Source of the DNA: an uncultured Nitrososphaerota archaeon | Lineage (GTDB): Archaea > Thermoproteota > Nitrososphaeria > Nitrososphaerales > Gagatemarchaeaceae | NCBI GenBank assembly: GCA_963718895.1 | Contig: CAVRAG010000008.1 | Span: 1,440,001 to 1,504,000 of the forward strand | Direction: 5' to 3' | Length of the DNA stretch: 64,000 nucleotides | Part shown: positions 35,999-55,314 of the stretch, piece after piece | Position numbering within the stretch: position 1 is the first letter of the stretch | How the letters are laid out: each line of letters begins with the position of its first letter | Notes under the pieces: generated by a model | What the model was told of the DNA's origin: nothing | What the model saw: only the letters and a program-made list of their open reading frames with translations | The model's database searches: none | Made by a program: the position numbers and the translations under genes

Positions 35999-36033
35999 GC
36001 CATGTTAGGCTTCATCGCGCCTCCGTCGGGGAA
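35999..36033 (+). repeat. Cassette repeat copy (supplies vapC stop codon)
   Basis: GCCATGTTAGGCTTCATCGCGCCTCCGTCGGGGAA. Confidence 0.85.
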
Positions 36034-36446
36034 TGATTCGGTACGGGAATGTACACGGCTTCCCGTCCTAAGGCGTTCTTGATGGTCGAGTCTGTCGTGA
36101 TGAGGATCGGTGCGGTGGCTTCTCTCGTGGCGAGGGCGAAGCAATCTGCGAGCGAAAGTTCTCTCTTCTTGACCTTCCAAAGGGCCGCCTGTCTTGTGAT
36201 CTGCACCTCGGGCGCGACGACCTTAATCCTGGAGCTGCGAACCTGAAGATACCAGACCTCGGCCGTTTCGACCCCCTTCTTCTCGGCAGTCTTGTAGTAG
36301 AACTCGGCGAGATTCACCTCAGAGACGAAACCGCGTGCCTTTCCTGAAAGGACCCTATCAAAGTAGGGCTTCACAGATGTCGCTCCAGCATAGTAAAGGG
36401 AAAGCGCCCCCGCGTCCAGCGCGTAGCTACGCGCGCTCAGACTCAA
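36012..36446 (-). CDS. vapC: VapC PIN-domain toxin
   Basis: YALDAG, NLAEFYY, SLADCF, LITTD; TTG start overlaps antitoxin. Confidence 0.9.
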   Translation of the reverse strand: MSLSARSYALDAGALSLYYAGATSVKPYFDRVLSGKARGFVSEVNLAEFYYKTAEKKGVETAEVWYLQVRSSRIKVVAPEVQITRQAALWKVKKRELSLADCFALATREATAPILITTDSTIKNALGREAVYIPVPNHSPTEAR

Positions 36447-36660
36447 CTTCCTTTCTCCGATCCCTCGATATTTCGAGCGCAACCTCCAGCATCTCGTCTC
36501 CTCCTGCCCCAAAACTCTCTTCCATCGAAAGAGAGGGCTCGAGAAGAATTCGTCCTCCTTCATCTCTGATTATCACGGCGCGGCCGATCTTGAACTTCCT
36601 TCTGAGATACGCGGGGATGACCACCTGTCCCTTGGAAGACACGGGAACGACCTTTTCCAT
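36427..36660 (-). CDS. AbrB/MazE-type antitoxin
   Basis: VSSKGQVVIPAYLR. Confidence 0.92.
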   Translation of the reverse strand: MEKVVPVSSKGQVVIPAYLRRKFKIGRAVIIRDEGGRILLEPSLSMEESFGAGGDEMLEVALEISRDRRKEVESERA

Positions 36661-36691
36661 GAAATCCGAGAAAGTAGGGCTTGTTTAAGTG

Positions 36692-36738
36692 TTTTACTTC
36701 CGTAGAGTTTTACTTCTAGAGCGATTTTACTTCCAGAG
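36692..36738. promoter_or_regulatory. Three direct repeats upstream of the AbrB-VapC operon (putative operator)
   Basis: TTTTACTTC(N1-3)AGAG at 36692, 36708 and 36725. Confidence 0.55.
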
Positions 36739-36749
36739 TCCGGTTCGAG

Positions 36750-36765
36750 AGGGTTCATTGCGCCT
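36750..36765 (+). repeat. Cassette repeat copy (core; supplies stop of Zn-ribbon gene)
   Basis: AGGGTTCATTGCGCCT. Confidence 0.75.
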
Positions 36766-37273
36766 GATGATCAGCTAAATTCTGAACTAACTCCCTGGAG
36801 AGCAAACATGTCTGCTCGAGCGTCAAACTCGATATGCTCTTGTCCAAGTCGGGAGACCCCTTCACAGCTGTCTGAAGTTCGAATCGGTCTCCCCCTGTTA
36901 TCACGCTCCAAGAGCTTTCTGGGTTCGAAATTCGTCCATACATGTTTGCGAGGGCGATGAACCTGTTTCTCACCGCACGCGAGTAGGTTTCGTTCTCCAT
37001 CAGCGCCAGGAGTCCGATGCCTGTCTGAGTTGATTCGCAGAGATACTTGAGAGCGGCAATCACGGCAAGGGGCTTCTCTCCCCTGAGGCCGAAACGTGCC
37101 TGCGACGACAGCATCTCGATGAAACGTCTGACATTATCTTCTGCAGCAGCAGGATCCATCCTGAGATCATTCGGACCTGCGCCCTGAACCCGTATCGTCG
37201 TGTTGCATCTGGGGCAGATGAGTTGGGCAGAATAAGCTTTCATTCGCGAGCCGCAGGACGGGCAGAAGTTCAA
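36755..37273 (-). CDS. Zn-ribbon hypothetical protein
   Basis: FCPSCG...ICPRC N-terminus. Confidence 0.7.
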   Translation of the reverse strand: MNFCPSCGSRMKAYSAQLICPRCNTTIRVQGAGPNDLRMDPAAAEDNVRRFIEMLSSQARFGLRGEKPLAVIAALKYLCESTQTGIGLLALMENETYSRAVRNRFIALANMYGRISNPESSWSVITGGDRFELQTAVKGSPDLDKSISSLTLEQTCLLSRELVQNLADHQAQ

Positions 37274-37381
37274 GGGCTTGAATCACTGTCTCCTGCCGTC
37301 CATAAATGATTTTTCTACATGCGCGCGAGACTCAGGGCCTCTAGCCATTTCTTGCTCTTGCACCTCCATAGAAGGTGTTGT

Positions 37382-37438
37382 GCCCTGCCAGGGTGTTCGT
37401 TGCGCCTCAGCCGCGACTCTTCATCAACGCGGGTTGGA
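37382..37438 (+). repeat. Cassette repeat copy (degenerate, full length)
   Basis: GGGTGTTCGTTGCGCCTCAGCCGCGACTCTTCATCAACGCGGGTTGG. Confidence 0.7.
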
Positions 37439-37443
37439 GATGG

Positions 37444-37863
37444 TCAGGCTCCGAGCCACACCGTTTCGGGAAGGGCCTTGAAATGCTCGTCACCCGTGAC
37501 GACTCTCGCCTTGTTCCTCTTTGCCGATGCAAGGACGATTCCATCAAAAAGACTGGGTTTTCTCAGGCCTGAAGAGGAAGCCCTCCTGTCGAGCTTGACG
37601 GTGGCCTTGGCCGCCTCTAGGGCTAGGTCGGCATCGATGCAAACGATCTCTGAAGTCTCGAGTATTGTGGCCAGCCGCTTCCGGACGGTCGACTCGGCTG
37701 CACCTTCGCGAACATACTTCCTCGCCACCTCGGCAAGGACGGTGCCAGGCGTCAGCACATTTTCGGCATCTTCGATGACTCTCTTGGCCCTCTGCCCTGT
37801 CTCACTGCCCAGGAAGACCTCTATCCAGGCATAGGCGTCAACTACGATCTTCGTCACGATCAT
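37444..37863 (-). CDS. vapC: VapC PIN-domain toxin
   Basis: VVDAYAWIE, VLAEV, SLFDG, VTGDEHF. Confidence 0.93.
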   Translation of the reverse strand: MIVTKIVVDAYAWIEVFLGSETGQRAKRVIEDAENVLTPGTVLAEVARKYVREGAAESTVRKRLATILETSEIVCIDADLALEAAKATVKLDRRASSSGLRKPSLFDGIVLASAKRNKARVVTGDEHFKALPETVWLGA

Positions 37864-38044
37864 CCTCTGTGAAGGGAGTCACCTTTCCGCTGTCCGCGCC
37901 GAACGCCTCCTCGAGGAGCGCCTTGCGGTGCCGCACGACCAGCATTCGTATGGTCTCCTCCAGGGTTCTGGCGTGTATACCCTTCTGCAGCGCTGCCAGC
38001 TCGCGAGCTGTGTCCTTAGAGACTTTTACGGTGGTCGCATCCAT
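37838..38044 (-). CDS. VapB-type (RHH-like) antitoxin
   Basis: TTVKVSKDT; overlaps vapC start. Confidence 0.85.
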   Translation of the reverse strand: MDATTVKVSKDTARELAALQKGIHARTLEETIRMLVVRHRKALLEEAFGADSGKVTPFTEDDRDEDRS

Positions 38045-38177
38045 GCTGAGTATACAGTATACTGGAATATTAAAGCATCCCTGGCTCAAGCGCGTAGGGA
38101 TTCACATAGCGTGTTCGGCGGACTTCCTGAGCAAATCCGTATTACATTTATATACATCTTGGCGTCATACAAATCCA

Positions 38178-38435
38178 ATGCCGGTGGTGACGGTTCGCGT
38201 ACCCGAGGCGCACAAGCGGAAGATGGACGAGCTAAGAGAAGTCAACTGGAGCGAGGTGATCCGGAGAGCGATAGAGGCGAAGATCGAGGAGGAAGAGACG
38301 TGGCACCGTATCGACGCCGCCAGGCTGAGGAAGGCAGGGACCTCGACCGACGAATTGAGGCGGAAGGTCGAAGGGTGGGATAGCCTCTCAGAGATAAGGA
38401 AGTGGCGCAGGTCTCATGGTGACAGTGGTAGCTGA
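38178..38435 (+). CDS. VapB-type (RHH/CopG) antitoxin
   Basis: MPVVTVRVPE...VNWSEVIRRAIE. Confidence 0.88.
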   Translation: MPVVTVRVPEAHKRKMDELREVNWSEVIRRAIEAKIEEEETWHRIDAARLRKAGTSTDELRRKVEGWDSLSEIRKWRRSHGDSGS

Positions 38436-38877
38436 CGCCTCGGTCATAGTGAAGTGGTTCGTCGAAGAAGACCACTCGGAGACCTCATTGCGGATGAGAG
38501 ACGACTATGTCGCCCAGAGGACCACGATCATCGTTCCCGCCGTCGCTCAGTTCGAGGTGCTGAACGCCCTTCGCTACTCTGGAGGTTTTGGTACGGATGA
38601 CCTGCTCGAAGTGGCCCGGACGCTCGACGGCTATCAGTTCATGGAGGTCATGCTGCACGGCGACTATTCGGGGAAGGCCGTCAAGATTGCCATGGACCTG
38701 GGCATAACGGTGTACGATGCATCCTACCTTGCGCTGGGAGAGGTACGCGGAATCGATGTGTTCACCGCCGACGAGGAACTCCTCAAAAAGGCCCGGAAGA
38801 AGCTAGCTTTCGTGCGGCATGTGAAAGATTACACCTTTCCTAAAACAGACGGCGAAGAGAACAGCACATCCCCATAG
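38416..38877 (+). CDS. vapC: VapC PIN-domain toxin
   Basis: VADASVIVKWF, EVLNAL, TVYDASY, FTADE. Confidence 0.93.
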   Translation: MVTVVADASVIVKWFVEEDHSETSLRMRDDYVAQRTTIIVPAVAQFEVLNALRYSGGFGTDDLLEVARTLDGYQFMEVMLHGDYSGKAVKIAMDLGITVYDASYLALGEVRGIDVFTADEELLKKARKKLAFVRHVKDYTFPKTDGEENSTSP

Positions 38878-38900
38878 AGTCGTCAGGATGATTTAATCCC

Positions 38901-38945
38901 TGGGGTTTATTGCGCCTCCGCCGGGAATCTCATCCAGCGGTTAGT
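38901..38945 (+). repeat. Cassette repeat copy
   Basis: TGGGGTTTATTGCGCCTCCGCCGGGAATCTCATCCAGCGGTTAGT. Confidence 0.85.
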
Positions 38946-39080
38946 GAGAGCGATACAAGTCGGTCTGACCGTATTCAGGTTGCGAACGGCGGACTACAGG
39001 AATCTCCGGCCCGAGCGGGGAAGCTCGGGTTCAGCTCGTCGGCGCTTCAACTCGCTCACTCGCCAATTGGGCTACCAGCG

Positions 39081-39563
39081 TCATTCTTGCCGTCTTTTGC
39101 GGGCGAACGCTCGAAGCATCGGGATGTCTTCCTGGAAGGCCTTCGCCAGCGTCTCCCTCAGCTTATCCGCGACCGCCTTCGGGGCACGCACGTAGACGTC
39201 GATTCCGGTCTTGTTCCCTTTGGGGGTGTAGAGGAAGACCATCTTCAAGCCTGCATAGGCTCCCTCGAACTCCTCGCTGATGCGGGCCAAGGGAGGAATG
39301 GTCGTGATCCGTGCTTTCATCTTCATCCATCGCCCTCCCCTCACCACTTCGCAGGTCGCCTCGTCGGTTATTTCGTTCACTTCCTTCCACTTCATGTTTC
39401 GCAGACTCCCGCGGTGGGCCCGAGGGTGGAACTCGTTGTCGTTCATGATGAAATCCCAGACGACGTCGATCGGGGCATCGTATACGCTTCCTTTGTCCTC
39501 GAAGTATACGAAGTCCGCGGAGTCCCCAGCCTTTGTGGAACGGGTAGGCATGGTTGGCATCAT
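39081..39563 (-). CDS. SRPBCC-like hypothetical protein
   Basis: YDAPIDVVWDF motif. Confidence 0.65.
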   Translation of the reverse strand: MMPTMPTRSTKAGDSADFVYFEDKGSVYDAPIDVVWDFIMNDNEFHPRAHRGSLRNMKWKEVNEITDEATCEVVRGGRWMKMKARITTIPPLARISEEFEGAYAGLKMVFLYTPKGNKTGIDVYVRAPKAVADKLRETLAKAFQEDIPMLRAFARKRRQE

Positions 39564-39612
39564 AATCGTGTACGACAAATAAAGGGTGTGACAGATTGGT
39601 CGGCAATCAGTT

Positions 39613-39668
39613 GCCGTGCATAGGGTTCGTTGTGTCTCCGCCGGGCCATTTCATCCACATGTTGGGCT
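39613..39668 (+). repeat. Cassette repeat copy (full length)
   Basis: GCCGTGCATAGGGTTCGTTGTGTCTCCGCCGGGCCATTTCATCCACATGTTGGGCT. Confidence 0.95.
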
Positions 39669-39694
39669 CAGTCAGTGGACTTGAAATGTCGTCT

Positions 39695-39958
39695 TCACGT
39701 CCGGTAGACGCGGTCATGGTGTTCATAGTCCTCGAGGACTATTGTCTTCCTCGCCTCGTCGATCGAAAAGAGTAAGACATAGCTGCCGATGTGGACCCTC
39801 CTCAGTCCAGCGAGCGGGAAGCGGAGCGGCTTGTACGCGTGTGGATCTTCGGCTATCTCCTGAACCTTCTTCGCGACCGCTTCCATCTGCCTAGAGTCTT
39901 TCTTGGTCAGCTTCCTGAACGCCTTATCGAGATGCTCCCTGATCTCGATGTCGTACAT
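39695..39958 (-). CDS. relE: RelE/ParE (YafQ-like) toxin
   Basis: YKPLRFPLAGLRRVHIGSYVLLF...HHDRVY. Confidence 0.9.
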   Translation of the reverse strand: MYDIEIREHLDKAFRKLTKKDSRQMEAVAKKVQEIAEDPHAYKPLRFPLAGLRRVHIGSYVLLFSIDEARKTIVLEDYEHHDRVYRT

Positions 39959-40201
39959 TCACTTCAGTCCGTATCTCTTCCGCAGGTCGGGGGCGCGTCC
40001 GAGCCTGATTATCGGCTCTTTCTGGACTTCCAGGAGCTTGCGGATGTATTCCGGTCTGAACTCGGATTCCAGGACGATCTCCCTGTACTCTTTGGCGAGC
40101 TTGTTGATGGCCTGTGACTTGTCTCTTAAGCCGTATTGGGCCTTTAGGATGTTGATGACCCTATTTGCCTCATCGTCGATGTCGACGATCGCCTTGACCA
40201 T
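39959..40201 (-). CDS. DUF2683-like antitoxin
   Basis: MVKAIVDIDDEANRVINILKAQYGLRDKSQAI; abuts toxin gene. Confidence 0.85.
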   Translation of the reverse strand: MVKAIVDIDDEANRVINILKAQYGLRDKSQAINKLAKEYREIVLESEFRPEYIRKLLEVQKEPIIRLGRAPDLRKRYGLK

Positions 40202-40272
40202 ATTAATATGGCATTAATACGCCATTATTTAGAGCTACCGTCAGGGAGAGACGCGCCATCCACCGGTCGACC

Positions 40273-40303
40273 GTCATGCTAAGGTTCACTGCGCCTCCGC
40301 TGG
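40273..40303 (+). repeat. Cassette repeat copy
   Basis: GTCATGCTAAGGTTCACTGCGCCTCCGCTGG. Confidence 0.85.
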
Positions 40304-40446
40304 AGGCTCCTCGATCTCTCCGGATAGAGTAAGGCAAATCGCAGAAGATTCTCGGGTTCGGAGGCCAGCCTGACAAATCTTCCTGATGTATTGCTGAAAT
40401 AATCTTAATCTCCTCCTATCAATATCGCGCTTTCATACTATGTCTC

Positions 40447-40716
40447 ATGGAATCTCGAAGCAGATTCGACGTTGTGACCGGAATCCTGCTCGCGACGAAG
40501 GATGGAGCCTCGAAGGCAAGGATAACCAGCGAGAGCTCCCTCGCGCCATCCTTGGTCGAGCAGTGCCTGTTCTTCCTGCGGCTTTCGGACCTCATCAAGA
40601 AGGAGGAGGGAAGCGAGCTGTTCAGGCCGACCGAGAAAGGCAGCAATCTGATCAGTGACTATGAGCGCATCGACCGGACGATGGAAGGACGGTTAGTCCA
40701 GCCGTTGACGAGCTGA
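40447..40716 (+). CDS. Archaeal winged-helix protein
   Basis: RSRFDVVTGIL...FRPTEKG. Confidence 0.8.
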   Translation: MESRSRFDVVTGILLATKDGASKARITSESSLAPSLVEQCLFFLRLSDLIKKEEGSELFRPTEKGSNLISDYERIDRTMEGRLVQPLTS

Positions 40717-40767
40717 GAAGAGACCGATTTCGCTGCGCAGGAGGACTCGTTGCGTCCGGCACAATCA

Positions 40768-40818
40768 GCCTGCAGAGTCCTTGCGCCTCCGCCCAGGTAT
40801 TTCATCCATATGTTGGCT
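40768..40818 (+). repeat. Cassette repeat copy (supplies stop of membrane gene)
   Basis: GCCTGCAGAGTCCTTGCGCCTCCGCCCAGGTATTTCATCCATATGTTGGCT. Confidence 0.85.
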
Positions 40819-41203
40819 GCTTGCGTCTCAGCTTGCCGACAATGATCACAGCCAGTCCGGCTATTGCTACCAAGAAACCTCCATAGAATGGAAAGTAGTA
40901 GCCAGTCAGATTGCAAACCTCCATGCATAGGGTTTGGGTCAGAACCAGGAACGATCCGAAGGATACCAACAGTCCAATCGACACCGTCGTCCATCCAGCA
41001 TCCACGAAGAGGTTGGAGCGCGCGTTTGGAGTCCTCCACCTCTGAAGAACGCCAACACAGGTAAAGAGCCCGCCTCCCAGAACTCCCAGCACCCCGAAAT
41101 TGGCCAGAGCCAGGTCTTCATTCAGCGGACTGGCGTAGTAGTACAGGACCAACGCGACCGCTCCGAGCGTGACGAGTACCAAGCCCAGCCGGGAGAAGTT
41201 CAT
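40802..41203 (-). CDS. 4-TM membrane protein
   Basis: Four hydrophobic segments. Confidence 0.7.
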   Translation of the reverse strand: MNFSRLGLVLVTLGAVALVLYYYASPLNEDLALANFGVLGVLGGGLFTCVGVLQRWRTPNARSNLFVDAGWTTVSIGLLVSFGSFLVLTQTLCMEVCNLTGYYFPFYGGFLVAIAGLAVIIVGKLRRKQPTYG

Positions 41204-41312
41204 CGTTCCAACCTCACAGAATCGAGAATCTTCTCATCCTAAATGCGTTTGTCCGAATGCAAATGACCGTAGCCTCCAGCCATTGGCTTCTAACCAATGG
41301 AAGAGATGTCTT

Positions 41313-41338
41313 GCCATGTATAGGGTTCATTGCGCCTC
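41313..41338 (+). repeat. Cassette repeat copy (left arm + core)
   Basis: GCCATGTATAGGGTTCATTGCGCCTC. Confidence 0.92.
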
Positions 41339-41364
41339 GTTGAGCACTCTTGTCATCAACTGCA

Positions 41365-41544
41365 TCATTCCTTCTTCTGCTTGCTTCCGATCTCAACCAT
41401 CTGGAACTGGCACTGGTACTTCTTTCCGTTGAGATCCAATTTTTGGGTAGCCCAGTAGCCGACTGATCCAGTGCTGAACTTCTTCTCGGGGAGACCGATG
41501 TCGGCGATCTTTTGCGATCCTTCATAGAGTTCGATGCGTGGCAT
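41365..41544 (-). CDS. Small hypothetical protein (59 aa)
   Basis: KKFSTGSVGYW...KKYQCQFQMVEIGSK; fills a ~270-bp unit. Confidence 0.65.
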   Translation of the reverse strand: MPRIELYEGSQKIADIGLPEKKFSTGSVGYWATQKLDLNGKKYQCQFQMVEIGSKQKKE

Positions 41545-41610
41545 GAGCGCCAACGCACCGTCAGGCGTAGTTAAGACTGCCCTCGGGGCCAACTGCATTC
41601 CCGATGAGCT

Positions 41611-41651
41611 GTTATTGCGCCTCCGCCGGTCCATTTCATCCATGCGTTGGA
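41611..41651 (+). repeat. Cassette repeat copy (core + right arm)
   Basis: GTTATTGCGCCTCCGCCGGTCCATTTCATCCATGCGTTGGA. Confidence 0.92.
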
Positions 41652-41760
41652 CAATTCTACACCGGCGATCGTTCTGCATACGGATGCGTCTGGCCGACTT
41701 ATGGGAATGCCGCGTTCAGAGCGAAGAGAGCGAGGAAGGGCGCGGACGTCGCCGCGCCCT

Positions 41761-43488: not shown

Positions 43489-43721
43489 ACGATTCGATTG
43501 GTAAGGGTCAATCCAGGTATATACAGCGCCTAGACGATTCTCAGAATTGAGAAGTGTCGCAGAATGGCCGAGGAAACGACGAGGAATCCCCAGGCCCGTC
43601 GGTTTGTTCTTCACTCCACAATGACCTACGATCTTCTGAATCCCCTTTTGAATCTAGATTCGCTTGACGATTCTTCCCCAATGGGTATGGTCCGACTCTC
43701 GCGGTGGAGGCAGATCTGGGC

Positions 43722-46193: not shown

Positions 46194-46207
46194 AGTGGAA
46201 GTTGTTA

Positions 46208-46853: not shown

Positions 46854-46937
46854 ACCGTTTCCCTGAGGCACGGCATGTGGATGAGGCATTAATCGCGAAT
46901 CTCCAGCATCGACTGCGGTTGTAAAGCTTGAGACGCG

Positions 46938-47261: not shown

Positions 47262-47367
47262 CTGAAACCGGTATCCAAAGCTCATTCATCAACATGTTCA
47301 CCGTTAACCTAGAGCCAATGTATCCGAAAGCACCAGTCTTGACCGGGCTCTTTGCCTTCGCGGCCAG

Positions 47368-47993: not shown

Positions 47994-48099
47994 AGCAGTG
48001 CAGTCATGATGGCGGCTTTTGATTGATAGTTATGTCCGAATGATACTAAACGTAACCTCCAGCCATTGCTCTTGCTAAGATGCCGTAAAGAATGGCAGT

Positions 48100-48155
48100 G
48101 CCATGCATAAGGGTTCATTGCGCCTCCGCCGGGGATGATTACCCACACGTTCGGC
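48100..48155 (+). repeat. Cassette repeat copy (full length)
   Basis: GCCATGCATAAGGGTTCATTGCGCCTCCGCCGGGGATGATTACCCACACGTTCGGC. Confidence 0.93.
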
Positions 48156-48244
48156 ACTGTGATGGTGGTCATCGGAAGTCATGGAGTGGACTACGGCGAT
48201 GCTTATAGGCAACAGGTTGTCTCAGTCCCGCCCAGAACCAGCTG

Positions 48245-49597: not shown

Positions 49598-49613
49598 CTT
49601 TCTTTTGTGTTAC

Positions 49614-49668
49614 GCCGTGCATGGATTCATTGCGGTTCTGCCGGGGCATCTCACTCACACGTTGGGCT
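49614..49668 (+). repeat. Cassette repeat copy (full length)
   Basis: GCCGTGCATGGATTCATTGCGGTTCTGCCGGGGCATCTCACTCACACGTTGGGCT. Confidence 0.9.
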
Positions 49669-49689
49669 AGTTCGCGTTGCCCACCGCAT

Positions 49690-50097
49690 CTACGGCCTCT
49701 CTTTCCGTAGGATGCCCTTCACGTCGAAGTCGCTGTCGTGTGAGAATATCTCCTTGATCTTGCGTTGTTGCATGACCGTGAGGGTGACCGCGTCTGTGAA
49801 GCTCAGTTGCTCATACTTTCTGTAAGTCGACAACGCCTCCCTAAAGATGACTTCATCGACATACAACACGCTCACCCGGGAAGAGGTCATGATATTCCGT
49901 ATGGCCTCCTCAATGGACCCGGCGCTTCCGCCCCTCATCTTCAGGAGGGTCAGCGTCTCATCCAGGACAAAATCCGTGGTGATGGCTGAAGGGAGCTTGC
50001 CGCTGGCCAGCGCTTCCAAGACTGCAGCCCCGTCCTTGTGAAGAGAGTCGGAAGAGTCGATGCCCGACGCCCAGATGGTCGTGTCCACGAAAATCAA
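49690..50097 (-). CDS. vapC: VapC PIN-domain toxin
   Basis: IFVDTT, VLDETLT, SFTDA, FSHDSDF. Confidence 0.93.
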   Translation of the reverse strand: MIFVDTTIWASGIDSSDSLHKDGAAVLEALASGKLPSAITTDFVLDETLTLLKMRGGSAGSIEEAIRNIMTSSRVSVLYVDEVIFREALSTYRKYEQLSFTDAVTLTVMQQRKIKEIFSHDSDFDVKGILRKERP

Positions 50098-50348
50098 GGA
50101 TGCGCTTCCACCTCTTTGAGGTCGCGGAGCGCACTCCGCCTCTTGTCGGTTCTTATCGAACCGATGACTGCATTTAGAGAGTCTGGTCGCCCGCGAAGCT
50201 CGTTCTCGGAATCCCCATACTTCTGAATGTACAGTTTCAGCGCTTCCTCCCCCTCTGGCGTCAGTTCTATCTTCCCGCGGCGCTTGATTACTGTCTGCTT
50301 GAACTTCTTGAGCAGTTCTTCATCTACCACGAACTTGACCTGGGCCAT
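50094..50348 (-). CDS. Putative RHH antitoxin
   Basis: QVKFVVDEELLKKFK; TTGA overlap with vapC. Confidence 0.8.
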   Translation of the reverse strand: MAQVKFVVDEELLKKFKQTVIKRRGKIELTPEGEEALKLYIQKYGDSENELRGRPDSLNAVIGSIRTDKRRSALRDLKEVEAHP

Positions 50349-50390
50349 CCGTTATCAAGTACCGGGGTACTCCTGTACTATAAAGCATTT

Positions 50391-50426
50391 GCACGGGGTT
50401 CATCGCACCTCCGCCGGGGCATTTCA
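50391..50426 (+). repeat. Cassette repeat copy
   Basis: GCACGGGGTTCATCGCACCTCCGCCGGGGCATTTCA. Confidence 0.9.
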
Positions 50427-50520
50427 AACAACTCAGTGCCGACGGAATTGGATTCGCAGATAGCTACATGAGAAGCGCTCTACGCTGGTCCTTTTTAGTG
50501 GGAGTCACGTCGGAGGGTGT

Positions 50521-50913
50521 ATGTCCGCGTACAAGTTCCCAACCGTCGATGAGATAATCGACGTCAACAGACGAGTGCTGGTAGAGATACCGGTCAAGAG
50601 GGCGGACAGGTATCAGGTCTTGTCTCGCATGAAGTTGCAGCTCATCCTTGATGATGCAAAGAAGACGAACGGGGACGTCTACAATCCCGCGACGGAGCTC
50701 CTGTTCGGAATCGTGAAAGGACATCCTTTTGCAAGTGGCGTTAGGCGGACCGCGGTGACCGTTACGTCAGCATTCTTGAAGTTGAACGGCGCTGGGACGG
50801 AGGTGCCTCACGATCCTGATGTGCTAAAGGGAATCCGTGAGGGTTTTTATAGCAAGATCGAAATCAAAGAATGGCTGAAGGGTCATGGCATCAGAAAGCT
50901 CACAGGTGATTGA
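50521..50913 (+). CDS. Fic/Doc (death-on-curing) family protein
   Basis: HPFASGVRRTA variant of HPFxDGNKR. Confidence 0.85.
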   Translation: MSAYKFPTVDEIIDVNRRVLVEIPVKRADRYQVLSRMKLQLILDDAKKTNGDVYNPATELLFGIVKGHPFASGVRRTAVTVTSAFLKLNGAGTEVPHDPDVLKGIREGFYSKIEIKEWLKGHGIRKLTGD

Positions 50914-51040
50914 TTCCGAGTTCCTTCGCTACTGTGAAGAGTATATAGCGAAGAACCGGGTATTCCTTCAGCGCGTCGGCAGACTCTGAGCTCCGACGTC
51001 TCTCGTTAGCGGCTCGAGGGGAAGGATTCTTCTTGAAGTA

Positions 51041-51063
51041 TGGGGTCCATTGCGTCTCCGCCG
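51041..51063 (+). repeat. Cassette repeat copy (core)
   Basis: TGGGGTCCATTGCGTCTCCGCCG. Confidence 0.75.
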
Positions 51064-51174
51064 TGACCTGAAAGGACTCGCCGCTGATTAGATATTCATC
51101 TTTTTGCAAGCTTGCCTTCGAAGGCCCTCTTACGGTCTTGCGATATGGTTAGGGCCTCCACGGATAGGGACATA

Positions 51175-51714
51175 CTATTCCGGCGGCGCAACTTGCATCA
51201 CGGACTGGTCAAAGGTAGAAAGGAACGTCTGAAAGTCTTGAGGCCCCAGTATCACGTATGTGCCGCTCGTGAGCACCAAGACGAGGTTAGTGTCGTTCCT
51301 GCTGAGGACATCTGCTTTCACCCCGCTGGACAGTGTGAAGTATCCCGAGTGGAAAAGGCCGAGCGCAGACCCATCGGTCCTTGACGCGATGGTTATGTTC
51401 CAGCTGGACAGACTGACCACATAGGCCTTGGATATCTGGCTGGCTGAGACGTTGAGATTGAAGTACGCCGTCGAGACGAGGACAGATCCCTTGCTTACGG
51501 TTATCGAATTCTGATGAGACGGGCTTGTTAGGAAGAAGGCGCCTGCGCCGGCGATTAGCAGGACGATGCCGACCACGAGAATCTTCGTCCTTCTTTTCCT
51601 CGCTACGAGCGAAAAGATAGCGAGAACCGCCCCAACGATGATCAGTACCGCAACTACTCCCAGAACAAGGATGCCAAGGATGACCGGTGCATTGACCGGA
51701 AAGACGGTGACCAA
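51175..51714 (-). CDS. Membrane protein with bacterial PH-like domain
   Basis: 2 TM helices; RTDGSALGLFHSGYFTL. Confidence 0.75.
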   Translation of the reverse strand: MVTVFPVNAPVILGILVLGVVAVLIIVGAVLAIFSLVARKRRTKILVVGIVLLIAGAGAFFLTSPSHQNSITVSKGSVLVSTAYFNLNVSASQISKAYVVSLSSWNITIASRTDGSALGLFHSGYFTLSSGVKADVLSRNDTNLVLVLTSGTYVILGPQDFQTFLSTFDQSVMQVAPPE

Positions 51715-51750
51715 GAGCGCGTCAGGGAACGGAAGATATCCCTTTTAAAA

Positions 51751-51800
51751 GCCATAGAAATTGCGGGTCCCCGCCGAGGCATTTCATCCAGACGTTTGGC
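51751..51800 (+). repeat. Cassette repeat copy (degenerate left, right arm kept)
   Basis: GCCATAGAAATTGCGGGTCCCCGCCGAGGCATTTCATCCAGACGTTTGGC. Confidence 0.8.
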
Positions 51801-51834
51801 GACTGAAATCCAGTGCTGATAATCGAGTATTCTT

Positions 51835-52305
51835 TCAGCCAGGGTTGGCGCTGGTCCTTGACCTCTTCCGAGTCTCACTCCCCTTTTTCTCGGAGATGTC
51901 GTCGATAGCTTCCACCCAATGGACTCTCTTGAACGCTTGATCGTGCGTCGCTATCCTAACAACCCCAGAAGCCTGCATCGTCGCCAAGATCACACACTCT
52001 CGGCTTCCTAGACCTACAGACGCGTGTTCTGTAATCATCCCAAATGCGGCATCAGCAATCCGGCGGTCCAGATCAAAGATTCTGAGAGTGGCGAGGGTTT
52101 GAATCCTCTCCATCAAGTCTGAGAATTCTTGTTTCGGGAGCATCCTCAGATAATGAGCCACTTCGAATAACGTGACGTAATTTGTGGCGATTCCTTCTTT
52201 AATCGCCTTCCGCATGGTCCTGAGAACACGTTCGTGTTCGGGAAGCCTCGAGTCCAACCAGTAGATCCAGTAGTTAGAGTCGACGTATATCAAACTCGGG
52301 CCCAA
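51835..52305 (-). CDS. vapC: VapC PIN-domain toxin
   Basis: IYVDSN, TLFEV, IATHDQAF. Confidence 0.9.
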   Translation of the reverse strand: MGPSLIYVDSNYWIYWLDSRLPEHERVLRTMRKAIKEGIATNYVTLFEVAHYLRMLPKQEFSDLMERIQTLATLRIFDLDRRIADAAFGMITEHASVGLGSRECVILATMQASGVVRIATHDQAFKRVHWVEAIDDISEKKGSETRKRSRTSANPG

Positions 52306-52538
52306 ATCTCCTTTAGCCGCAGCGGGTCGGTCGCCCTCGCCTTGCTCCCTCTCTTCAGGATGCCTTCGGTTTGCTTGATGAAGGCTTCGGGTTCTAGGCT
52401 GGATTTCAACATGATGATGGAACCGCCTCTATCAGCGATGCTAACCCTGACCTTGCTGCCTTCCGCCAGTCCAAGCTCTTTCCGTACCTCGTCAGGAATC
52501 ACTACACGGCCTTTTGAGTCGACGACCGTCTCCGTCAA
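52290..52538 (-). CDS. AbrB/MazE-type antitoxin
   Basis: VDSKGRVVIPDEVRKELGL. Confidence 0.92.
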   Translation of the reverse strand: MTETVVDSKGRVVIPDEVRKELGLAEGSKVRVSIADRGGSIIMLKSSLEPEAFIKQTEGILKRGSKARATDPLRLKEIWARV

Positions 52539-52573
52539 CTGGTTCCCACTTTGATTCCCACTTTCGCTACTTA

Positions 52574-52620
52574 AGGGTTCGTCGCGCCCCCGCCGGGGCA
52601 GTTCATCCACACGTTGGGCT
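52574..52620 (+). repeat. Cassette repeat copy (core + right arm)
   Basis: AGGGTTCGTCGCGCCCCCGCCGGGGCAGTTCATCCACACGTTGGGCT. Confidence 0.92.
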
Positions 52621-52653
52621 ATAGTAAGTCGACGCTAAGAGAGGGCTGTGAGA

Positions 52654-52881
52654 CTAGCCGAGCAGTCTTAGGAATTCGTCTCTCGTCATCCCGGATTGCT
52701 CGATGATGGAGAGCAGCGTTCCTGTTGCGACGGTCTCGTGCCGCGGGACCGTGACCTTGTGCTTCCTCTCCGGCTCGGTCATGTAGATGTGGCTGCCTTT
52801 TTGATGAATCACATAGAAGCCCTTCTTTCCGAGGGCCTTGACAATCCGCCTCCAGCCTAGGCTCGGCAGGCGCTTCGACAA
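52654..52881 (-). CDS. hicA: HicA toxin
   Basis: QKGSH, VTVPRH, GTLLSII. Confidence 0.94.
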   Translation of the reverse strand: MSKRLPSLGWRRIVKALGKKGFYVIHQKGSHIYMTEPERKHKVTVPRHETVATGTLLSIIEQSGMTRDEFLRLLG

Positions 52882-52913
52882 CAGAATCCACGTTCTCTCG
52901 GTCTTGGGTTGGA

Positions 52914-53144
52914 TCAGATTGTGACCTGAAGGACCTCTTTCTTCAGATTCAAGCGAGCTTCTTCTTCAGGGAAGGCTTCCAGAAAACCCTGGATGGCCTC
53001 CCGGATGTTGTGCAGGGCTTCCTTCTTCGTATCTCCTTCGCTAATCGCGCCCGGGAGTTCGACACACCTGACTGAATAGCCATGTCCTTCCTCCTTTTGC
53101 AGGATGACCGTGAATGTGCCCTGCGGAACCTTTGCGGTCTTCAT
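52914..53144 (-). CDS. hicB: HicB antitoxin
   Basis: LPGAISEGDTKKEALHNIREAI. Confidence 0.94.
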   Translation of the reverse strand: MKTAKVPQGTFTVILQKEEGHGYSVRCVELPGAISEGDTKKEALHNIREAIQGFLEAFPEEEARLNLKKEVLQVTI

Positions 53145-53200
53145 TGTAAGTATGGAACCTGACGTTCCTTATTAGCGAATCTATCCTTGATCCCGGAATG

Positions 53201-53246
53201 AGGTTCGTTGCGCCTCCGCCGGGGCATTTCATCCACATGTTGGGCT
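53201..53246 (+). repeat. Cassette repeat copy (core + right arm)
   Basis: AGGTTCGTTGCGCCTCCGCCGGGGCATTTCATCCACATGTTGGGCT. Confidence 0.96.
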
Positions 53247-53323
53247 ATGGGTAAGGCGCCTGCTGAACTAGTCGCCGAGCAGCCCTGACAATCAAGAAAC
53301 CGATGAAGAAGACCGACCTCGGG

Positions 53324-53533
53324 TCAGCGCGAAACAGCTTCGGTCAGCTGCTTTAGGACGCCTTTCTTCTTCGCGGCCCAGACCTCTATCCCTATGACCT
53401 CTCCAGCATTATCCAGCTCGACCATCACGTTGTCCTCGACTTCTTTCACGCTTCCTGCTGGGCCGTCCCTGAAGTGAAAGTAGAGAATGTCGCCTTCTGC
53501 GTCGTAGTCGAGCTTCATTTCCTTTCGACCCAA
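53324..53533 (-). CDS. DUF2283 protein (putative antitoxin)
   Basis: YDAEGDILY...GEVIGIEVW. Confidence 0.9.
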   Translation of the reverse strand: MGRKEMKLDYDAEGDILYFHFRDGPAGSVKEVEDNVMVELDNAGEVIGIEVWAAKKKGVLKQLTEAVSR

Positions 53534-53793
53534 GCTCCTCTTCGAAGTTTCCTACTAATAAGGCTGCTAACGTCTGAAGCGTGATATACTGTGACGACCC
53601 AGTCGTCTGCCGCTTTCGTACTGAAGAAGACCACAAGGTATCTCTCTGCGAATCTCTTTACCGCGATGGTCGTACCAAATTCAATATCCAGGTATCGTGA
53701 TTCTGGAGATTGGATGGTGGCCGCGACCATCCTCTTGCTCACACGCCTGACCCTCATTCTAAAGGTAGCGTGTTCGGTGTACTTGATGGGCAA
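53515..53793 (-). CDS. DUF4258 protein (putative RelE-fold toxin)
   Basis: YTEHATFRMRVR...VVTVY. Confidence 0.85.
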   Translation of the reverse strand: MPIKYTEHATFRMRVRRVSKRMVAATIQSPESRYLDIEFGTTIAVKRFAERYLVVFFSTKAADDWVVTVYHASDVSSLISRKLRRGAWVERK

Positions 53794-53849
53794 GCCGAAA
53801 TGATGTATTTCTTTCGATGATAAAAGCAGCTCTGAAGGACCAGGACGTT

Positions 53850-53881
53850 GCCATGTATAGGGTTCATTGCGCCTCCGCTGG
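53850..53881 (+). repeat. Cassette repeat copy (left arm + core)
   Basis: GCCATGTATAGGGTTCATTGCGCCTCCGCTGG. Confidence 0.95.
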
Positions 53882-53883
53882 AC

Positions 53884-55116
53884 TCACGACCCGACTTCGA
53901 TGACCAGCCAGACGGCCTGCTCGTAGTGGAACTGGCATCCGTGAGAGGTGAGCAGGGCGGGGATGTTCTGGCCACCCGGGAACTCCGTGATACTGCATGG
54001 CTGAGATACCACTATGGAGAGGCCGTACCCGATGTAGTAGCCGAAGTGAGTGAAGTTGGGGTTGGTAAGGACGGACCAGTGGCCGGGAGCCGACTCTTGC
54101 AGGGTGCTCGCGTATTCGAACGGTAGTTGGGTGCCGGGCCACAGTGTCGTCTCGCCGATTTGGAGCGACGAACCCGGGAACGACCTGGCGAAGTCCTGTT
54201 GGAAGCCGTAGTTAGAGACGTTGTAGTTCGCGACCTGAGTGTTGAACCTAGTTTGGGCGAAGGCGTCCAGCGTCTGGTCCTCCACGAGCTTCGGTCCCGT
54301 CCTGTTCGCGTTGACCTCTTGGATGAAGGCGTTTACCCAGTCGGAAGTGAGTCCGCTGGCCGGCCATAGGCCCTGGAAGGATTGCTGGTAGATTATTGGG
54401 TCGGTGTAGATGTCGCCGTCGTAAGAGGTGGTGACCTCTACCCTGTACGAGAGCGATTGACCTGCGGTCAGAGAGTCGTTGTCATTGAAGGCTTCGTTCC
54501 AGACGCTGCAGCTCGAGCCAGGGGCAAGCGTCATCGCGCACCTACCCCCGGTCATGTAGTCGTCCCACACGATTCCTCCCTGGGTCCGGTTGTTGTAATC
54601 TCCCGGGTAGTCGAAGGACGCTAACACGGGAGCGAGCGTCCGCGTCCCTGTGTTCTTTATCGTCGCGGAGAAGTTCACCAATCCCAACGCGTCTCGCGCG
54701 ACAGAGACGTTCTGGATGGCCACTTCGCCCCGTGGGTTCAGGTCAAAAGCCGGGAAGGGGAAGTACTCTGCGCCGGTTATCTTCGCGTCTGTTGTGTAGA
54801 AGATTGCGGAGTTGTTACCCTCGACGATTCTGTAAGACCCGTTGAATGGCTGTATTCCAATCCCGAAGAGCGCGTAGGAGACTGAGGCGCGCCCGGTGAC
54901 GTTAGTTGCTGGGTAGTGATGCGTCAGGTAGCACACCGGTACTCCTCCAACCGTCTGGCCGGTGCATACTGGAGGCCCCTCGTACACGAACGGTATCTGG
55001 AGCGAGAGGTTGTATGGTACGATTGGGAACGCGAAGAGTAAGACCACTGCTATTGCTGCCGAGATTGCAAGAACCCCAGAGGTCCTTCGACGAAACTTCA
55101 TCTCGATGTTGGCCAT
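53884..55116 (-). CDS. Membrane-anchored protein with C-terminal CAP/SCP-like domain
   Basis: N-terminal TM; VNANR...APGHWSVLTNPNFTHFG. Confidence 0.75.
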   Translation of the reverse strand: MANIEMKFRRRTSGVLAISAAIAVVLLFAFPIVPYNLSLQIPFVYEGPPVCTGQTVGGVPVCYLTHHYPATNVTGRASVSYALFGIGIQPFNGSYRIVEGNNSAIFYTTDAKITGAEYFPFPAFDLNPRGEVAIQNVSVARDALGLVNFSATIKNTGTRTLAPVLASFDYPGDYNNRTQGGIVWDDYMTGGRCAMTLAPGSSCSVWNEAFNDNDSLTAGQSLSYRVEVTTSYDGDIYTDPIIYQQSFQGLWPASGLTSDWVNAFIQEVNANRTGPKLVEDQTLDAFAQTRFNTQVANYNVSNYGFQQDFARSFPGSSLQIGETTLWPGTQLPFEYASTLQESAPGHWSVLTNPNFTHFGYYIGYGLSIVVSQPCSITEFPGGQNIPALLTSHGCQFHYEQAVWLVIEVGS

Positions 55117-55305: not shown

Positions 55306-55314
55306 GATAGGATT

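Follow-up and report, generated by a model that had tools for sequence, protein, structure and literature searches.

The window, which is the whole stretch of 64,000 nucleotides analysed here, holds the distal half of a cassette array (1753..64000, minus strand) with 40 site copies in one orientation, the rRNA-sense strand of each being the minus strand. The entire array runs head-to-tail over ~128 kb (C8:~1,441,000-1,568,033) and contains about 95 copies; it originates at the 3' terminus of the sole 23S rRNA gene, 64 kb past the right edge of the window. The copies are spaced at a median of 858 bp, and the DNA between them mostly carries a single minus-strand gene or a pair of them, which often have a TATA-like box of their own. 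The repeats separate about a hundred small shuffled cassettes behind the 23S gene of a soil archaeon. A search for GCGCCTCCGCC (profile 31-41 of the repeat) with at most 1 mismatch gave 34 matches in the window (33 on the plus strand), compared to 3.03 expected and a maximum of 7 in shuffled sequences. The genome-wide profile search returned 131 matches at E<=10. At E<=0.1 there were 78 copies, all in + orientation and located in C8:1,436,000-1,570,000, of which 40 are inside the window and 19 within 36012..53884.

The array repeat is DNA of the 23S rRNA 3' end and the 3' trailer. An archaeal LSU rRNA is found by Rfam on the minus strand at L002:12000-16001, and the right arm of the rightmost copy aligns with the last positions of this rRNA. 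Within the repeat, the final ~35 nt of 23S make up the right arm, while the core and left arm are the 3' trailer, which forms one side of the processing stem of pre-23S; the 23S leader pairs with this trailer. The conserved core (~24 nt, profile 22-45) is the trailer half of a bulge-helix-bulge (BHB) motif, made up of a helix, a 4-bp GCGC helix, an AAU bulge and a second helix. The BHB can be drawn with 3-nt bulges on either side of the GCGC helix using standard pairs only. Read on the minus strand, a full copy has the last ~35 nt of 23S followed by the inner processing stem, the BHB trailer half and the outer stem, and long copies run on into a T-rich, terminator-like stretch.

The profile search located the following copies at 35,991-53,881, all on the minus strand (profile positions in brackets). 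Full copies are present at 39609..39671 (8..67), 45819..45883 (14..68), 46205..46274 (12..72; 67.5 bits), 48092..48162 (-9..66, with a long left arm) and 49612..49670 (12..68). Left arm and core are found at 35991..36034 (-9..48, the arm being long), 41310..41338 (11..37, breaking inside the core after GCGCCTC), 44854..44887 (3..42), 51036..51065 (17..42, the arm being short) and 53843..53881 (11..43). Core and right arm are found at 40778..40816 (26..64), 41613..41660 (24..64) and 51761..51813 (28..66), with only part of the right arm at 37388..37438 (24..60) and 38898..38941 (22..56), and with all of it at 52571..52635 (21..80), which has an A/T-rich box directly to its left, and at 53192..53261 (23..78; 65.8 bits). 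There is a core-only copy at 40279..40303 (20..46), a core copy at 50391..50426 (22..52), and a weak copy (E=0.45) at 36746..36765 which breaks directly after GCGCCT.

The original prediction described the sites as mosaics, and this is how they are built. All five copies cited as left arm and core only have that structure (profile 11-44 at 12709, 11-37 at 41313, 3-42 at 44858, 11-43 at 53850 and 12-41 at 59699), as do all four cited as core and right arm only (28-58 at 34686, 24-64 at 41611, 21-80 at 52574 and 23-78 at 53201). The 78 array copies comprise 17 full, 22 left+core, 15 core+right, 16 core-only and 8 other copies. Per-position conservation among them is about 0.8-0.99 in the core and 0.2-0.5 in the flanks. 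Similarity is lost abruptly, not gradually, at the breakpoints: identity to the consensus is 0.81 within the matched span, 0.20-0.28 over the 10 positions that follow and 0.24-0.29 beyond these, which is the background level (0.255). Breaks occur on the left at profile positions 11-12, 20-23 and 28-29, on the right at 36-38, 40-46 and beyond, and about a dozen copies break directly after GCGCCT(C). Compared to the native flank, the longest right arm reaches 99 nt from the core start and the longest left arm 76 nt; arm lengths fall anywhere up to these limits, which argues against a fixed arm site. The two arms at a junction are independent of each other (odds ratio 0.95, p=1 in G000, the genome with the present array; 0.78, p=0.76 in the single-contig genome G007).

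The cassettes are discrete, shuffled units which have different neighbours in related genomes and within the same array. Between G000 and G007 only cassette-sized blocks are common and their order differs, while the rRNA operons are collinear. Within the array, the cassettes of the copies at 36746..36765, 50391..50426 and 53843..53881 are duplicated at array positions 80924-81690 (where the right-hand neighbour is another one), 83075-83735 and 97311-97806, respectively. A total of 33 homologous cassette pairs was drawn from G000, G007, metagenome contigs and duplicates within the array; 6 are syntenic and 27 non-syntenic (17 cassette families). In 27/27 non-syntenic pairs the site itself contains both ends of the similarity, which lie 0-26 nt left of the core and, on the other side, 6-50 nt right of its start. 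Next to a neighbour with a non-consensus arm, similarity stops at profile 20-31 (left) and 36-46 (right), and the narrowest bounds enclose GCGCCT, the six bases with which the originally proposed core sequence begins, an interval partly set by detection as a copy is found only if the core is present. The consistent ending of homology within the site places the crossover at about GCGCCT. The left arm travels with the cassette on its left and the right arm with the cassette on its right, and as each arm stays with its own cassette every junction is a hybrid. Hybrid junctions and a crossover in the core had both been predicted and are borne out by the 27 pairs and by the independence of the arms. 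The same prediction drew on integrons, a parallel which is not supported here. Of the weakly matching donor sequence which it proposed, the sequence past the breaks in the 78 array copies carries no trace, and no donor locus was recovered.

Cargo is unrelated between cassettes but rich in PIN toxins and GNAT acetyltransferases. Of 54 window ORFs compared with Pfam, 9 have a PIN domain, an example being the VapC-like ORF at 49690..50097 (minus strand). It had been suggested that minus-strand genes take their stop codons from the repeat. The six ORFs cited (20450, 29176, 36012, 36755, 40802 and 45874) all exist and stop within a copy: the PIN-domain ORF 36012-36563 terminates at the TGA of copy 35991..36034, ORF 36755-37273 reads through copy 36746..36765, ORF 40802-41203 terminates at the right-arm TGA of copy 40778..40816 and the short ORF 45874-46032 at the right-arm TAG of copy 45819..45883. 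This is, however, not above chance, minus-strand ORFs (>=60 aa) stopping inside 7/78 copies with 8.5 expected at random array positions. Stops are enriched just past the copy, at 0-30 nt on its right side (23/78 vs 5.5 expected); the 410-aa ORF 53884-55116 stops 3 nt right of copy 53843..53881. ORF C8:1535649-1536626 keeps its natural C-terminus beside a core which breaks at profile 37. TATA regions in place of missing left arms were proposed for three places (21054, 50391 and 52574), and at each an A/T-rich box follows directly after the core on the minus strand; after copy 50391..50426 there is a TATA-like box at 11 nt and an ATG at 47 nt. The A+T content after the core has a mean of about 0.50 across the first ~90 nt, compared to 0.434 array-wide.

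The same layout is found in G007 (about 45 copies), in 10 metagenome contigs and in G043, which belongs to another genus. The site was found in 20/22 other species of the genus and in 9/10 sampled genera of the family; in 3/3 complete genomes of other families it was not repeated within 20 kb downstream of 23S. The copies in G043 carry G043's own 23S-end variant and match it at 100% over 55-63 nt. A complete left arm is present at 12/12 native junctions, of which 11 are distinct as L072 and L074 read identically, and at 41/77 sites elsewhere in the array (Fisher p = 0.0013 for 12 junctions, 0.0023 for 11). The DNA beyond the left arm differs among the 11 readable native junctions, except for one identical pair.

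Tyrosine integrases are candidate recombinases for the array. In G000 no recombinase gene was found adjoining the main array or the rRNA operon, and no integrase was found by Pfam among the 54 window ORFs scanned. A 26.6-kb element between two site copies in G000 carries two tyrosine integrases; the closest homologues of the element's integrase were not near sites at any of 6 loci checked. G000 also has two group II intron reverse transcriptases. In G012, G020 and G017 a zinc-ribbon tyrosine recombinase is located ~0.65 kb upstream of the first site, with no site beyond it, and in G001 the gap between recombinase and first site is 2.6 kb, the contig beginning ~100 bp before the integrase. This family is present in 11/22 other species of the genus and was not found in the array-rich genomes G010 and G018. 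G007 has a single Pfam tyrosine-recombinase match, which is ~28 kb past the rRNA operon and ~36 kb away from the 3' end of 23S, and one resolvase match elsewhere.

The model which we find rather more probable than its denial, judging from the sequence comparisons, hypothesizes that conservative site-specific recombination in the core moves the cassettes bounded by the 23S end and trailer, the enzyme, probably a tyrosine recombinase, being supplied in trans. Circular cassettes, excision joints and transcripts were not observed. Strand exchange would take place in or next to GCGCCT, and the core, of about 24 bp, may be likened to a lambda-type core site. The native 23S junction would be an attI-like entry point, and a cassette would be tolerated at the first position only if its left arm re-forms the outer processing stem and the terminator. 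Copies breaking after GCGCCT(C), or at profile 28-29 to the left of the core, might be secondary-site products, and recombination at secondary sites would be one route to new cassette ends. The breaks after GCGCCT(C) fit this idea. If the crossover is confined to the core, the many cassettes bearing pieces of the native flanks are left unaccounted for, and the match of the G043 copies to the 23S end of that genome also calls for gene conversion, homologous recombination or the local birth of cassettes.

Homologous recombination and gene conversion between the repeats of 23S end plus trailer, 25-150 nt long, with imported DNA of relatives replacing the segments between any two copies, would need no dedicated recombinase at all. 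Variable arm lengths speak for it, as do the G043 copies, which suggest homogenisation with the native copy, and the lack of a recombinase consistently present or adjacent; homologous recombination at flanking rRNA genes has been proposed for a hypervariable SAR11 island between 23S and 5S, as stated in the accessible part of that report (PMC2217521). We nevertheless consider it unlikely as the whole explanation: many junctions have only the ~24-bp core in common, some only GCGCCT and one arm, and still have changed neighbours, the core is far better kept than the flanks, and 78/78 main-array copies have one orientation. Another model lets the copies act mainly as RNA, a half BHB being paired with a leader-like strand and cut by tRNA-splicing endonuclease to process read-through transcripts or cassette mRNAs, or lets cassettes move through spliced or ligated RNA which is reverse transcribed. 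The BHB half and the two helices beside it make up exactly the conserved 24 nt, the left breakpoint of the core+right copies (profile 28-29) is in the AAU bulge, the reverse transcriptases of G000 could be invoked, and circular 23S rRNA is described for Nitrososphaeria in the available portion of PMC12918454. But a single leader-type strand was found near the array (the 23S leader) for about 95 trailer-type copies, trailer cleavage predicts a single break position where several are seen, and an mRNA copy would be without the TATA-like boxes found upstream of cassette ORFs, all of which makes this model quite improbable.

Highly improbable is the proposal that the repeat is what paralogous minus-strand genes share at their start (ribosome binding site, start codon and N-terminus), or one neutrally decaying repeat family. 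On the minus strand GGAGG is indeed followed 5 nt on by ATG, and in 10/60 copies having it this ATG opens an ORF of at least 50 aa, but the median ORF is 24.5 aa and the cargo, as stated, is unrelated. Neutral decay would give intermediate identity past the breakpoints, not background, and the losses of the two arms are uncorrelated; a random loss of similarity along the repeat, as the original prediction had considered for this case, was not what the abrupt breaks revealed. A classical integron array or CALIN with attC repeats appears next to impossible. Small cassettes (median 858 bp) in one orientation and PIN toxin and GNAT acetyltransferase cargo would suit it, and attC integrons are known in archaeal MAGs according to the accessible part of PMC9668308. 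The attC identity was rejected as the sequence is that of the 23S end and trailer and the copies are without hairpin: folding of 3 copies on both strands was in no case better than shuffles (z -0.75 to +1.12), 7 extended copies had no consistent hairpin, and no R''/R' inverted pair was visible in the copies on either strand. No recombinase gene was found beside the main array either, and an integron is not supported. Judged by eye, the core also has none of the inverted-repeat symmetry usual for tyrosine-recombinase sites.

The array looks like an integron-like gene-capture system operating on a different kind of site. The HVR2 island resembles it in having hypervariable genes directly behind the sole 23S rRNA gene, with rRNA genes as proposed recombination anchors; in the accessible part of its description HVR2 is a single 48-kb bacterial block without internal repeated sites or cassettes, for which the authors found no attC sites and proposed homologous recombination (PMC2217521), whereas the present array is archaeal and has both internal repeated sites and cassettes. 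Sedentary chromosomal integrons share with the array the ~100 small, mostly single-gene cassettes in one orientation with related sites between them, the toxin-antitoxin and acetyltransferase cargo, a cassette order which varies between close relatives, ORFs ending tight against the site, and the unexplained origin of the cassettes. Unlike attC, the array site has neither hairpin nor R/L box symmetry and copies an rRNA gene end and processing stem. At an attC junction the neighbour contributes no more than the last 6 nt; here the crossover is central and the junctions are true hybrids of the arms of two cassettes. No IntI was found beside the array, many of its cassettes have their own TATA-like promoter, and the host is an archaeon.

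The pdif modules of Acinetobacter plasmids and other Xer-exploiting elements are likewise small gene modules bounded by short recombination sites with a recombinase that is not module-encoded. The 28-bp, dif-like pdif sites have inverted arms and alternate in orientation, whereas the array core is without dyad symmetry and all copies point one way. As in integrative elements and tandem islands at tRNA/tmRNA 3' ends, a conserved structural RNA gene is targeted at its 3' end, a copy of the gene end is repeated at every junction, and the newest material adjoins the gene. The array differs in that its target is 23S rRNA and the BHB trailer, not a tRNA, a target of which the literature searched gave no report, in units of about 0.9 kb almost none of which has an integrase, and in a crossover downstream of the mature RNA, so that the incoming arm must restore the processing stem and not the gene. 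The full, half and core-only copies mirror attP, attL/attR and attB of lambda-type att sites.

The repeat that separates the cassettes is the end of the 23S rRNA together with one half of the bulge-helix-bulge (BHB) in the stem by which that rRNA is processed, and the array starts right at the 23S gene; this is the main new fact. The rightmost copy, at the array end C8:1,568,033 in the source genome (G000), overlaps the 3' end of the 23S rRNA, which is encoded on the minus strand (12000-16001 of the extracted locus L002). Alignment to the archaeal LSU model identifies the right arm of this copy as the last ~35 nt of the 23S rRNA, and the remainder is 3' trailer which in a cofold pairs with the 23S leader over ~45 bp as a processing stem. 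A BHB in the long leader-trailer stem of 23S rRNA has two 3-nt bulges on opposite strands and a 4-bp helix between them. The trailer has the order helix, GCGC, AAU, helix and the leader the order helix, GCGC, AAG, helix, and the GCGC/GCGC helix flanked by AAU in the trailer and AAG in the leader can be drawn with standard pairs only. This drawing matches the BHB motif, with cleavage as a prediction; the minimum-energy fold places the bulges slightly differently. The best-conserved part of the repeat across copies, positions 22-45 of the site profile, is exactly the BHB half and the two flanking helices. Long left arms run on into native trailer, with a GC palindrome and a T-rich stretch, for up to ~76 nt, and we read the T-rich stretch as the putative terminator of the rRNA operon. 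Circular 23S rRNA is reported from Nitrososphaeria in excerpts of PMC12918454, and BHB processing of 23S would therefore be expected in this group.

The archaeal SSU model matches the source genome with 1447 bits, which marks the organism as an archaeon. The 23S gene (C8:1,568,000-1,572,001) spans 4002 nt against the 2987 positions of the model and contains a below-threshold match to a group I intron (L002:12445-12500, 26.1 bits, E=1.6e-4); because of this length and this match the gene probably carries an intron.

The core GCGCCTCCGCC is found with at most one mismatch 34 times in the 64-kb window, 33 times on the + strand, where shuffled sequences give an expectation of 3.03, and direct-repeat families in the window stretch it to ~56 nt. 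A site profile was built from nine good copies and gave 131 matches at E<=10 in the whole assembly, of which contig C8 has 101 in + orientation. The core occupies positions 31-41 of this profile, with the left arm at lower and the right arm at higher positions. Tightening the threshold to E<=0.1 leaves 78 copies, every one of them + and within C8:1,436,000-1,570,000; 40 are in the window and 19 in the range 36012..53884. The copies are spaced with a median of 858 nt (interquartile range 710-1510), and the minus strand carries the longest ORF in 49 of the 77 segments between them. By Pfam, the cargo encoded by the 54 window ORFs shows no relationship between units (PIN-domain proteins, GNAT acetyltransferases, short-chain dehydrogenases, thermopsin, NHL-repeat proteins), and many cargo ORFs in the window have no Pfam family at all. 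The distal end, the first 32 kb of the window, has 10 copies with a mean span of 34, and the two middle 32-kb blocks have 28-30 copies each with a mean span of 43-44. The sparser and shorter copies at the far end fit an older distal end of the array. An 18.7-kb insertion accounts for the equally low number, 10 copies, in the 32-kb block closest to the 23S gene. With its ~128 kb, roughly 4% of the assembly, the array represents a large strain-variable pool of accessory genes in an abundant group of acid-soil archaea.

The original prediction described the sites as mosaics, and the five copies it gave as left arm and core and the four it gave as core and right arm all have this make-up. Over the 78 copies we count 17 full sites, 22 with left arm and core, 15 with core and right arm, 16 with the core only and 8 others. 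When the breakpoints of similarity were mapped, identity to the consensus was 0.81 in the matched span, 0.20-0.28 in the ten positions past the break and 0.24-0.29 beyond; the background at random array positions is 0.255. Arm loss is abrupt, and the competing view that the repeat has simply decayed neutrally is ruled out by the background identity past the breaks together with the uncorrelated loss of the two arms. The six minus-strand ORFs thought to take their stop codons from the repeat do exist and do stop inside a copy, but stops in this position are not above chance (7 against 8.5 expected). What is enriched are stops of minus-strand ORFs 0-30 nt to the right of a copy (23 of 78 copies, 5.5 expected). 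The TATA regions proposed to replace missing left arms are seen as A/T-rich TATA-like boxes after the core on the minus strand at all three places named, and by eye at a dozen or so other copies, ~25-35 nt ahead of the ORF start. The observation as a whole is thus largely confirmed, with support for hybrid junctions and for crossover in the core; calling the system an integron was wrong.

Judged from the sequence comparisons, the units are mobile cassettes with crossover in the core. They are small, have one orientation (78 copies) and are shuffled between the source genome and G007, a single-contig genome of the same genus: the rRNA operons of the two are collinear with ~90% identity, and what their arrays have in common is limited to blocks the size of a cassette, which are ordered differently. 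We compared 210 inter-site units by their interiors (four loci of the source genome, G007, 44 metagenome loci and two further loci) and obtained 33 homologous pairs, 6 of which represent the same population in synteny and 27 of which are non-syntenic and come from 17 cassette families. Similarity ends inside the site on both sides in all 27 non-syntenic pairs, 0-26 nt left of the core and 6-50 nt right of the core start, and its reach follows the consensus arms shared by the two copies within a few nucleotides. Where the neighbour arm is non-consensus, similarity ends at profile positions 20-31 on the left and 36-46 on the right, and the tightest cases bracket positions 31-36, GCGCCT, an interval which is partly forced because a copy needs its core to be detected. 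Since similarity ends inside the site, the right arm belongs to the right-hand cassette, by whose ORF stop it lies, and the left arm to the left-hand cassette, by whose promoter it lies. When each arm travels with its own cassette, the presence of the two arms at a junction is predicted to be independent, and this is what is seen (odds ratio 0.95, p=1, in the source genome and 0.78, p=0.76, in G007); for the two arms within a cassette the odds ratios are 1.6 (p=0.35) and 0.86 (p=1), respectively. The proposed hybrid junctions and crossover in the core are accordingly supported both by the ends of similarity in the 27 pairs and by the independence of the arms. With a central crossover and cassettes which keep their own arms, the history of a junction can be read from its sequence.

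For the origin of cassettes we hypothesize, as the original prediction did, that weak donor sites may be used. In about a dozen copies of the source genome and G007 the consensus stops after GCGCCT(C), and in six copies of the source genome it begins only at profile position 28-29 and continues to the right; both kinds would be the remnants expected when a real site has recombined with a secondary one. These two break positions are ~7 bp apart, which may be linked to the distance between the two cuts of a tyrosine recombinase, also ~7 bp. Most of the arm-less copies retain all 24 bp of the core, and random secondary sites can therefore not be their source. Measured against the native flank, right arms reach up to 99 nt from the core start and left arms up to 76 nt, and because these lengths vary so widely the arms look like captured pieces of native flank and not like a fixed arm site. 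The coexistence of full, half and core-only sites, with about a dozen junctions that break right after a 6-7-bp segment, makes the old question of cassette formation testable in a manner for which integrons give no opportunity.

The search for a donor was made with one cargo gene, C8:1535649-1536626, the ORF of which terminates precisely at a copy with its break at profile position 37. Eight homologous loci were examined, one being a degenerate cassette elsewhere in the source genome (L049). Seven of the nine aligned stretches in these loci end 0-11 residues past a conserved C-terminal motif, and since this end is shared the cargo ORF is not truncated; of the remaining two stretches, both from G120, one continues for >50 residues and the other is located upstream of the motif. 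The homologue in a genome of another family (L043, G111:C197) has an 8-nt core match, GCAATGAA, 9 nt after its stop codon, which by a rough count is within chance (p ~0.1). The place of this 8-nt match is the one where a donor pseudo-site would be expected.

The copy at the genuine 23S 3' end, the native junction, differs from the others in its left arm, which is complete at 12 of 12 native junctions (11 distinct ones, as loci L072 and L074 read the same) versus 41 of 77 copies elsewhere in the array (Fisher p 0.0013 with 12 junctions, 0.0023 with 11). The left arms at native junctions show small indels between records, and among the 11 readable junctions the DNA beyond the left arm differs from record to record, except in the identical pair L072/L074. 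These observations suggest that cassettes enter at the native core and that a cassette would persist there only if its left arm restores both the outer stem and the terminator. Insertion replaces the outer processing stem and the terminator of the rRNA operon, and this would place a selective filter on incoming DNA.

The layout is not confined to one genome. The same 33-nt stretch is carried by relatives recorded as Nitrososphaerota, Nitrososphaerales and Candidatus Gagatemarchaeum, and a native junction with a full site is present on 10 metagenome contigs. G007 has ~45 copies running up to the 23S 3' end; its 23S leader appears as one reverse match beside the array, and a second weak reverse match (E=0.82) is located inside the array. 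Of 22 other species of the genus, 20 contain a 19-nt core pattern, as does one of two genomes in the same sample that belong to other genera of the family. A 91-nt query has matches in 9 of 10 sampled genera of the family; at a first look a genome had anything from 1-3 to 96 candidate matches, figures which should be taken as a rough guide. In G043, which belongs to another genus, there are 13 copies within 20 kb behind the 23S gene, and they carry this genome's own variant of the 23S end with 100% identity over 55-63 nt. One partial trailer duplicate was found within 20 kb in G046, also of the same family, and no trailer repeat within 20 kb in three complete genomes of other families. Viral contigs gave 0 matches to the 19-nt core pattern. 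Among public sequencing runs none of RNA was listed as containing the query words, and only two of DNA were, with 5-6% of these words.

No recombinase was detected by Pfam in the 54 window ORFs, in 24 ORFs flanking the array and the rRNA operon or in 16 ORFs nearer the 23S gene, and the 54 and 16 ORFs show that there is no integrase for each element. The source genome has four matches to PF00589, two at C8:1.19 Mb, one at C8:1.34 Mb and one at C4:99 kb; none of them adjoins the array or the rRNA operon, and from their positions there is no IntI beside an attI at the array head. In company with sites, integrases are found only in a 26.6-kb element of the source genome and, in other genomes, where secondary arrays begin. 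The 26.6-kb element (C8:1,189,573-1,216,187; loci L003, L027 and L028, region C8:1,189,519-1,222,552) is flanked by two direct site copies and followed by a four-site mini-array. It codes for two tyrosine integrases, two group II intron RT-maturase-HNH proteins, an ArdC-N-like protein, a PLD-like nuclease and an RNase H-like/metallophosphatase protein, and close homologues of its integrase have no nearby sites in six of six loci. Secondary arrays with a tyrosine recombinase carrying a C-terminal zinc ribbon upstream were found in G012:C7 (L100), G020:C86 (L101), G017:C8 (L102) and G001:C114 (L103). The distance from this recombinase to the first site is ~0.65 kb in the first three genomes and 2.6 kb in G001, and in G012 a small DnaJ-like ORF is located in between. 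On the far side of the recombinase there is no site within 4-18 kb in G012, G020 and G017; in G001 only ~100 bp of contig precede the integrase. A zinc-ribbon candidate is also encoded in the source genome, at C8:1338882-1340117. The integrases of the 26.6-kb element and the zinc-ribbon recombinases are leads, that is, candidate enzymes for the array. Against both leads, the zinc-ribbon family has a patchy distribution (11 of 22 other species of the genus), and a single Pfam tyrosine recombinase is encoded in G007, ~28 kb beyond the rRNA operon and ~36 kb from the 23S 3' end. A serine resolvase or an IS110-type enzyme was rejected for its inconsistent presence, a resolvase being found in one of five array-rich genomes and an IS110-type transposase above the Pfam cut-off in two of five. 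The gene for a 471-aa protein lies ahead of the 16S gene, in synteny with the rRNA operon, but this protein is matched in 34 of 40 other genomes searched, families without arrays included, and is therefore not array-specific.

The array behaves like an integron or like a tandem array of tRNA-targeting elements, yet it lacks what defines either of them: its sites have no attC fold, no IntI is found at its head, and its units do not each encode an integrase. An integron trait that the array does show is a run of small, uniformly oriented cassettes whose set differs between related genomes. An attC site is an imperfect inverted repeat (R''-L''...L'-R') which folds as a single-stranded hairpin. 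DNA folds of three copies on both strands gave z values of -0.75 to +1.12, as 43-178 of 200 shuffles were equally stable, and seven extended copies have no hairpin in common; with neither this fold nor an IntI at the head, the integron label has to be given up. A trait of elements with an att site at the 3' end of a structural RNA gene, a copy at each junction, is present (LSU alignment; native junctions of the source genome, G007 and the 10 metagenome contigs). Xer/dif-type sites are 28 bp long with two ~11-bp inverted arms and a 6-bp spacer, and in the registers tried by eye the aligned copies are without dyad symmetry about the core. Read on the minus strand, the core has GGAGG and 5 nt later ATG, and could be taken for a shared ribosome binding site and start codon; this was rejected, as ORFs that begin with this ATG have a median length of 24.5 aa and reach 50 aa or more in just 10 of 60 copies. 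The nearest described island behind a 23S gene is HVR2 of SAR11, for which excerpts of PMC2217521 propose homologous recombination and which, unlike the present array, has no internal sites as described there. No description of this array was found in the literature searched: excerpts of PMC9668308, which describes attC-bearing integrons from archaeal MAGs, do not mention Thaumarchaeota, Nitrososphaer- or rRNA, and the main text of the genome paper on the family (PMC10640624) does not mention integron, cassette, repeat, rRNA operon, genomic island or hypervariable.

It could also be proposed that the same 24 nt serve both as a DNA recombination site and as a signal for RNA processing or circularisation, BHB half-sites acting as RNA; we regard this as very improbable. 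Read-through pre-rRNA or transcripts of cassettes would then pair with the 23S leader strand, and tRNA-splicing endonuclease and RtcB would cut and ligate them. In the extreme form cassettes would be exchanged through spliced RNA copied into DNA by the resident group II intron reverse transcriptases. Mobile cassettes with a DNA crossover in the core is the reading we prefer, and if it is true the array would be an independently evolved archaeal platform for gene-cassette capture, anchored to the rRNA operon. In place of a folded attC, such a platform would use a core site that is double-stranded and a copy of an RNA-processing motif.

Seven ORFs for PIN-domain (VapC-like) proteins lie within 26 kb of the window (36012-36563, 38416-38877, 49690-50097, 51835-52305, 55315-55704, 57938-58354 and 61174-61617), several with a small ORF upstream, which fits toxin-antitoxin pairs as cargo. 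Within the genes of two NHL-repeat beta-propeller proteins (window 48245-49597, + strand, and 59762-61162, - strand) the DNA is repetitive, with periods of 126-258 nt, and paralogues of the former with 76-78% identity are present on C4 and at other places on C8. A 3-kb multi-gene segment with an ABC-2 permease at window 5364-8396 is duplicated at array position 84412-87446 with 82% identity. The 18.7-kb gap in the array contains, at L004:6863-13106 (C8:1,546,863-1,553,106), an operon with Double-GTPase (DO-GTPase1/2), a zinc-ribbon protein and two large family-less ORFs, adjoined by a TIG-domain protein of 1587 aa; the region looks like a large non-cassette insertion. A second cluster of ~20 site copies in the source genome, C4:262,490-302,721, has mixed orientation (14 + and 9 - on C4 overall) and no adjoining rRNA gene, and could be a rearranged array or a contig of a co-binned strain. 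To the left of the array an ORF (L029:2506-3507; C8:1,422,506-1,423,507) matches the ligand-binding and membrane domains of pentameric ligand-gated ion channels, which are uncommon in archaea.
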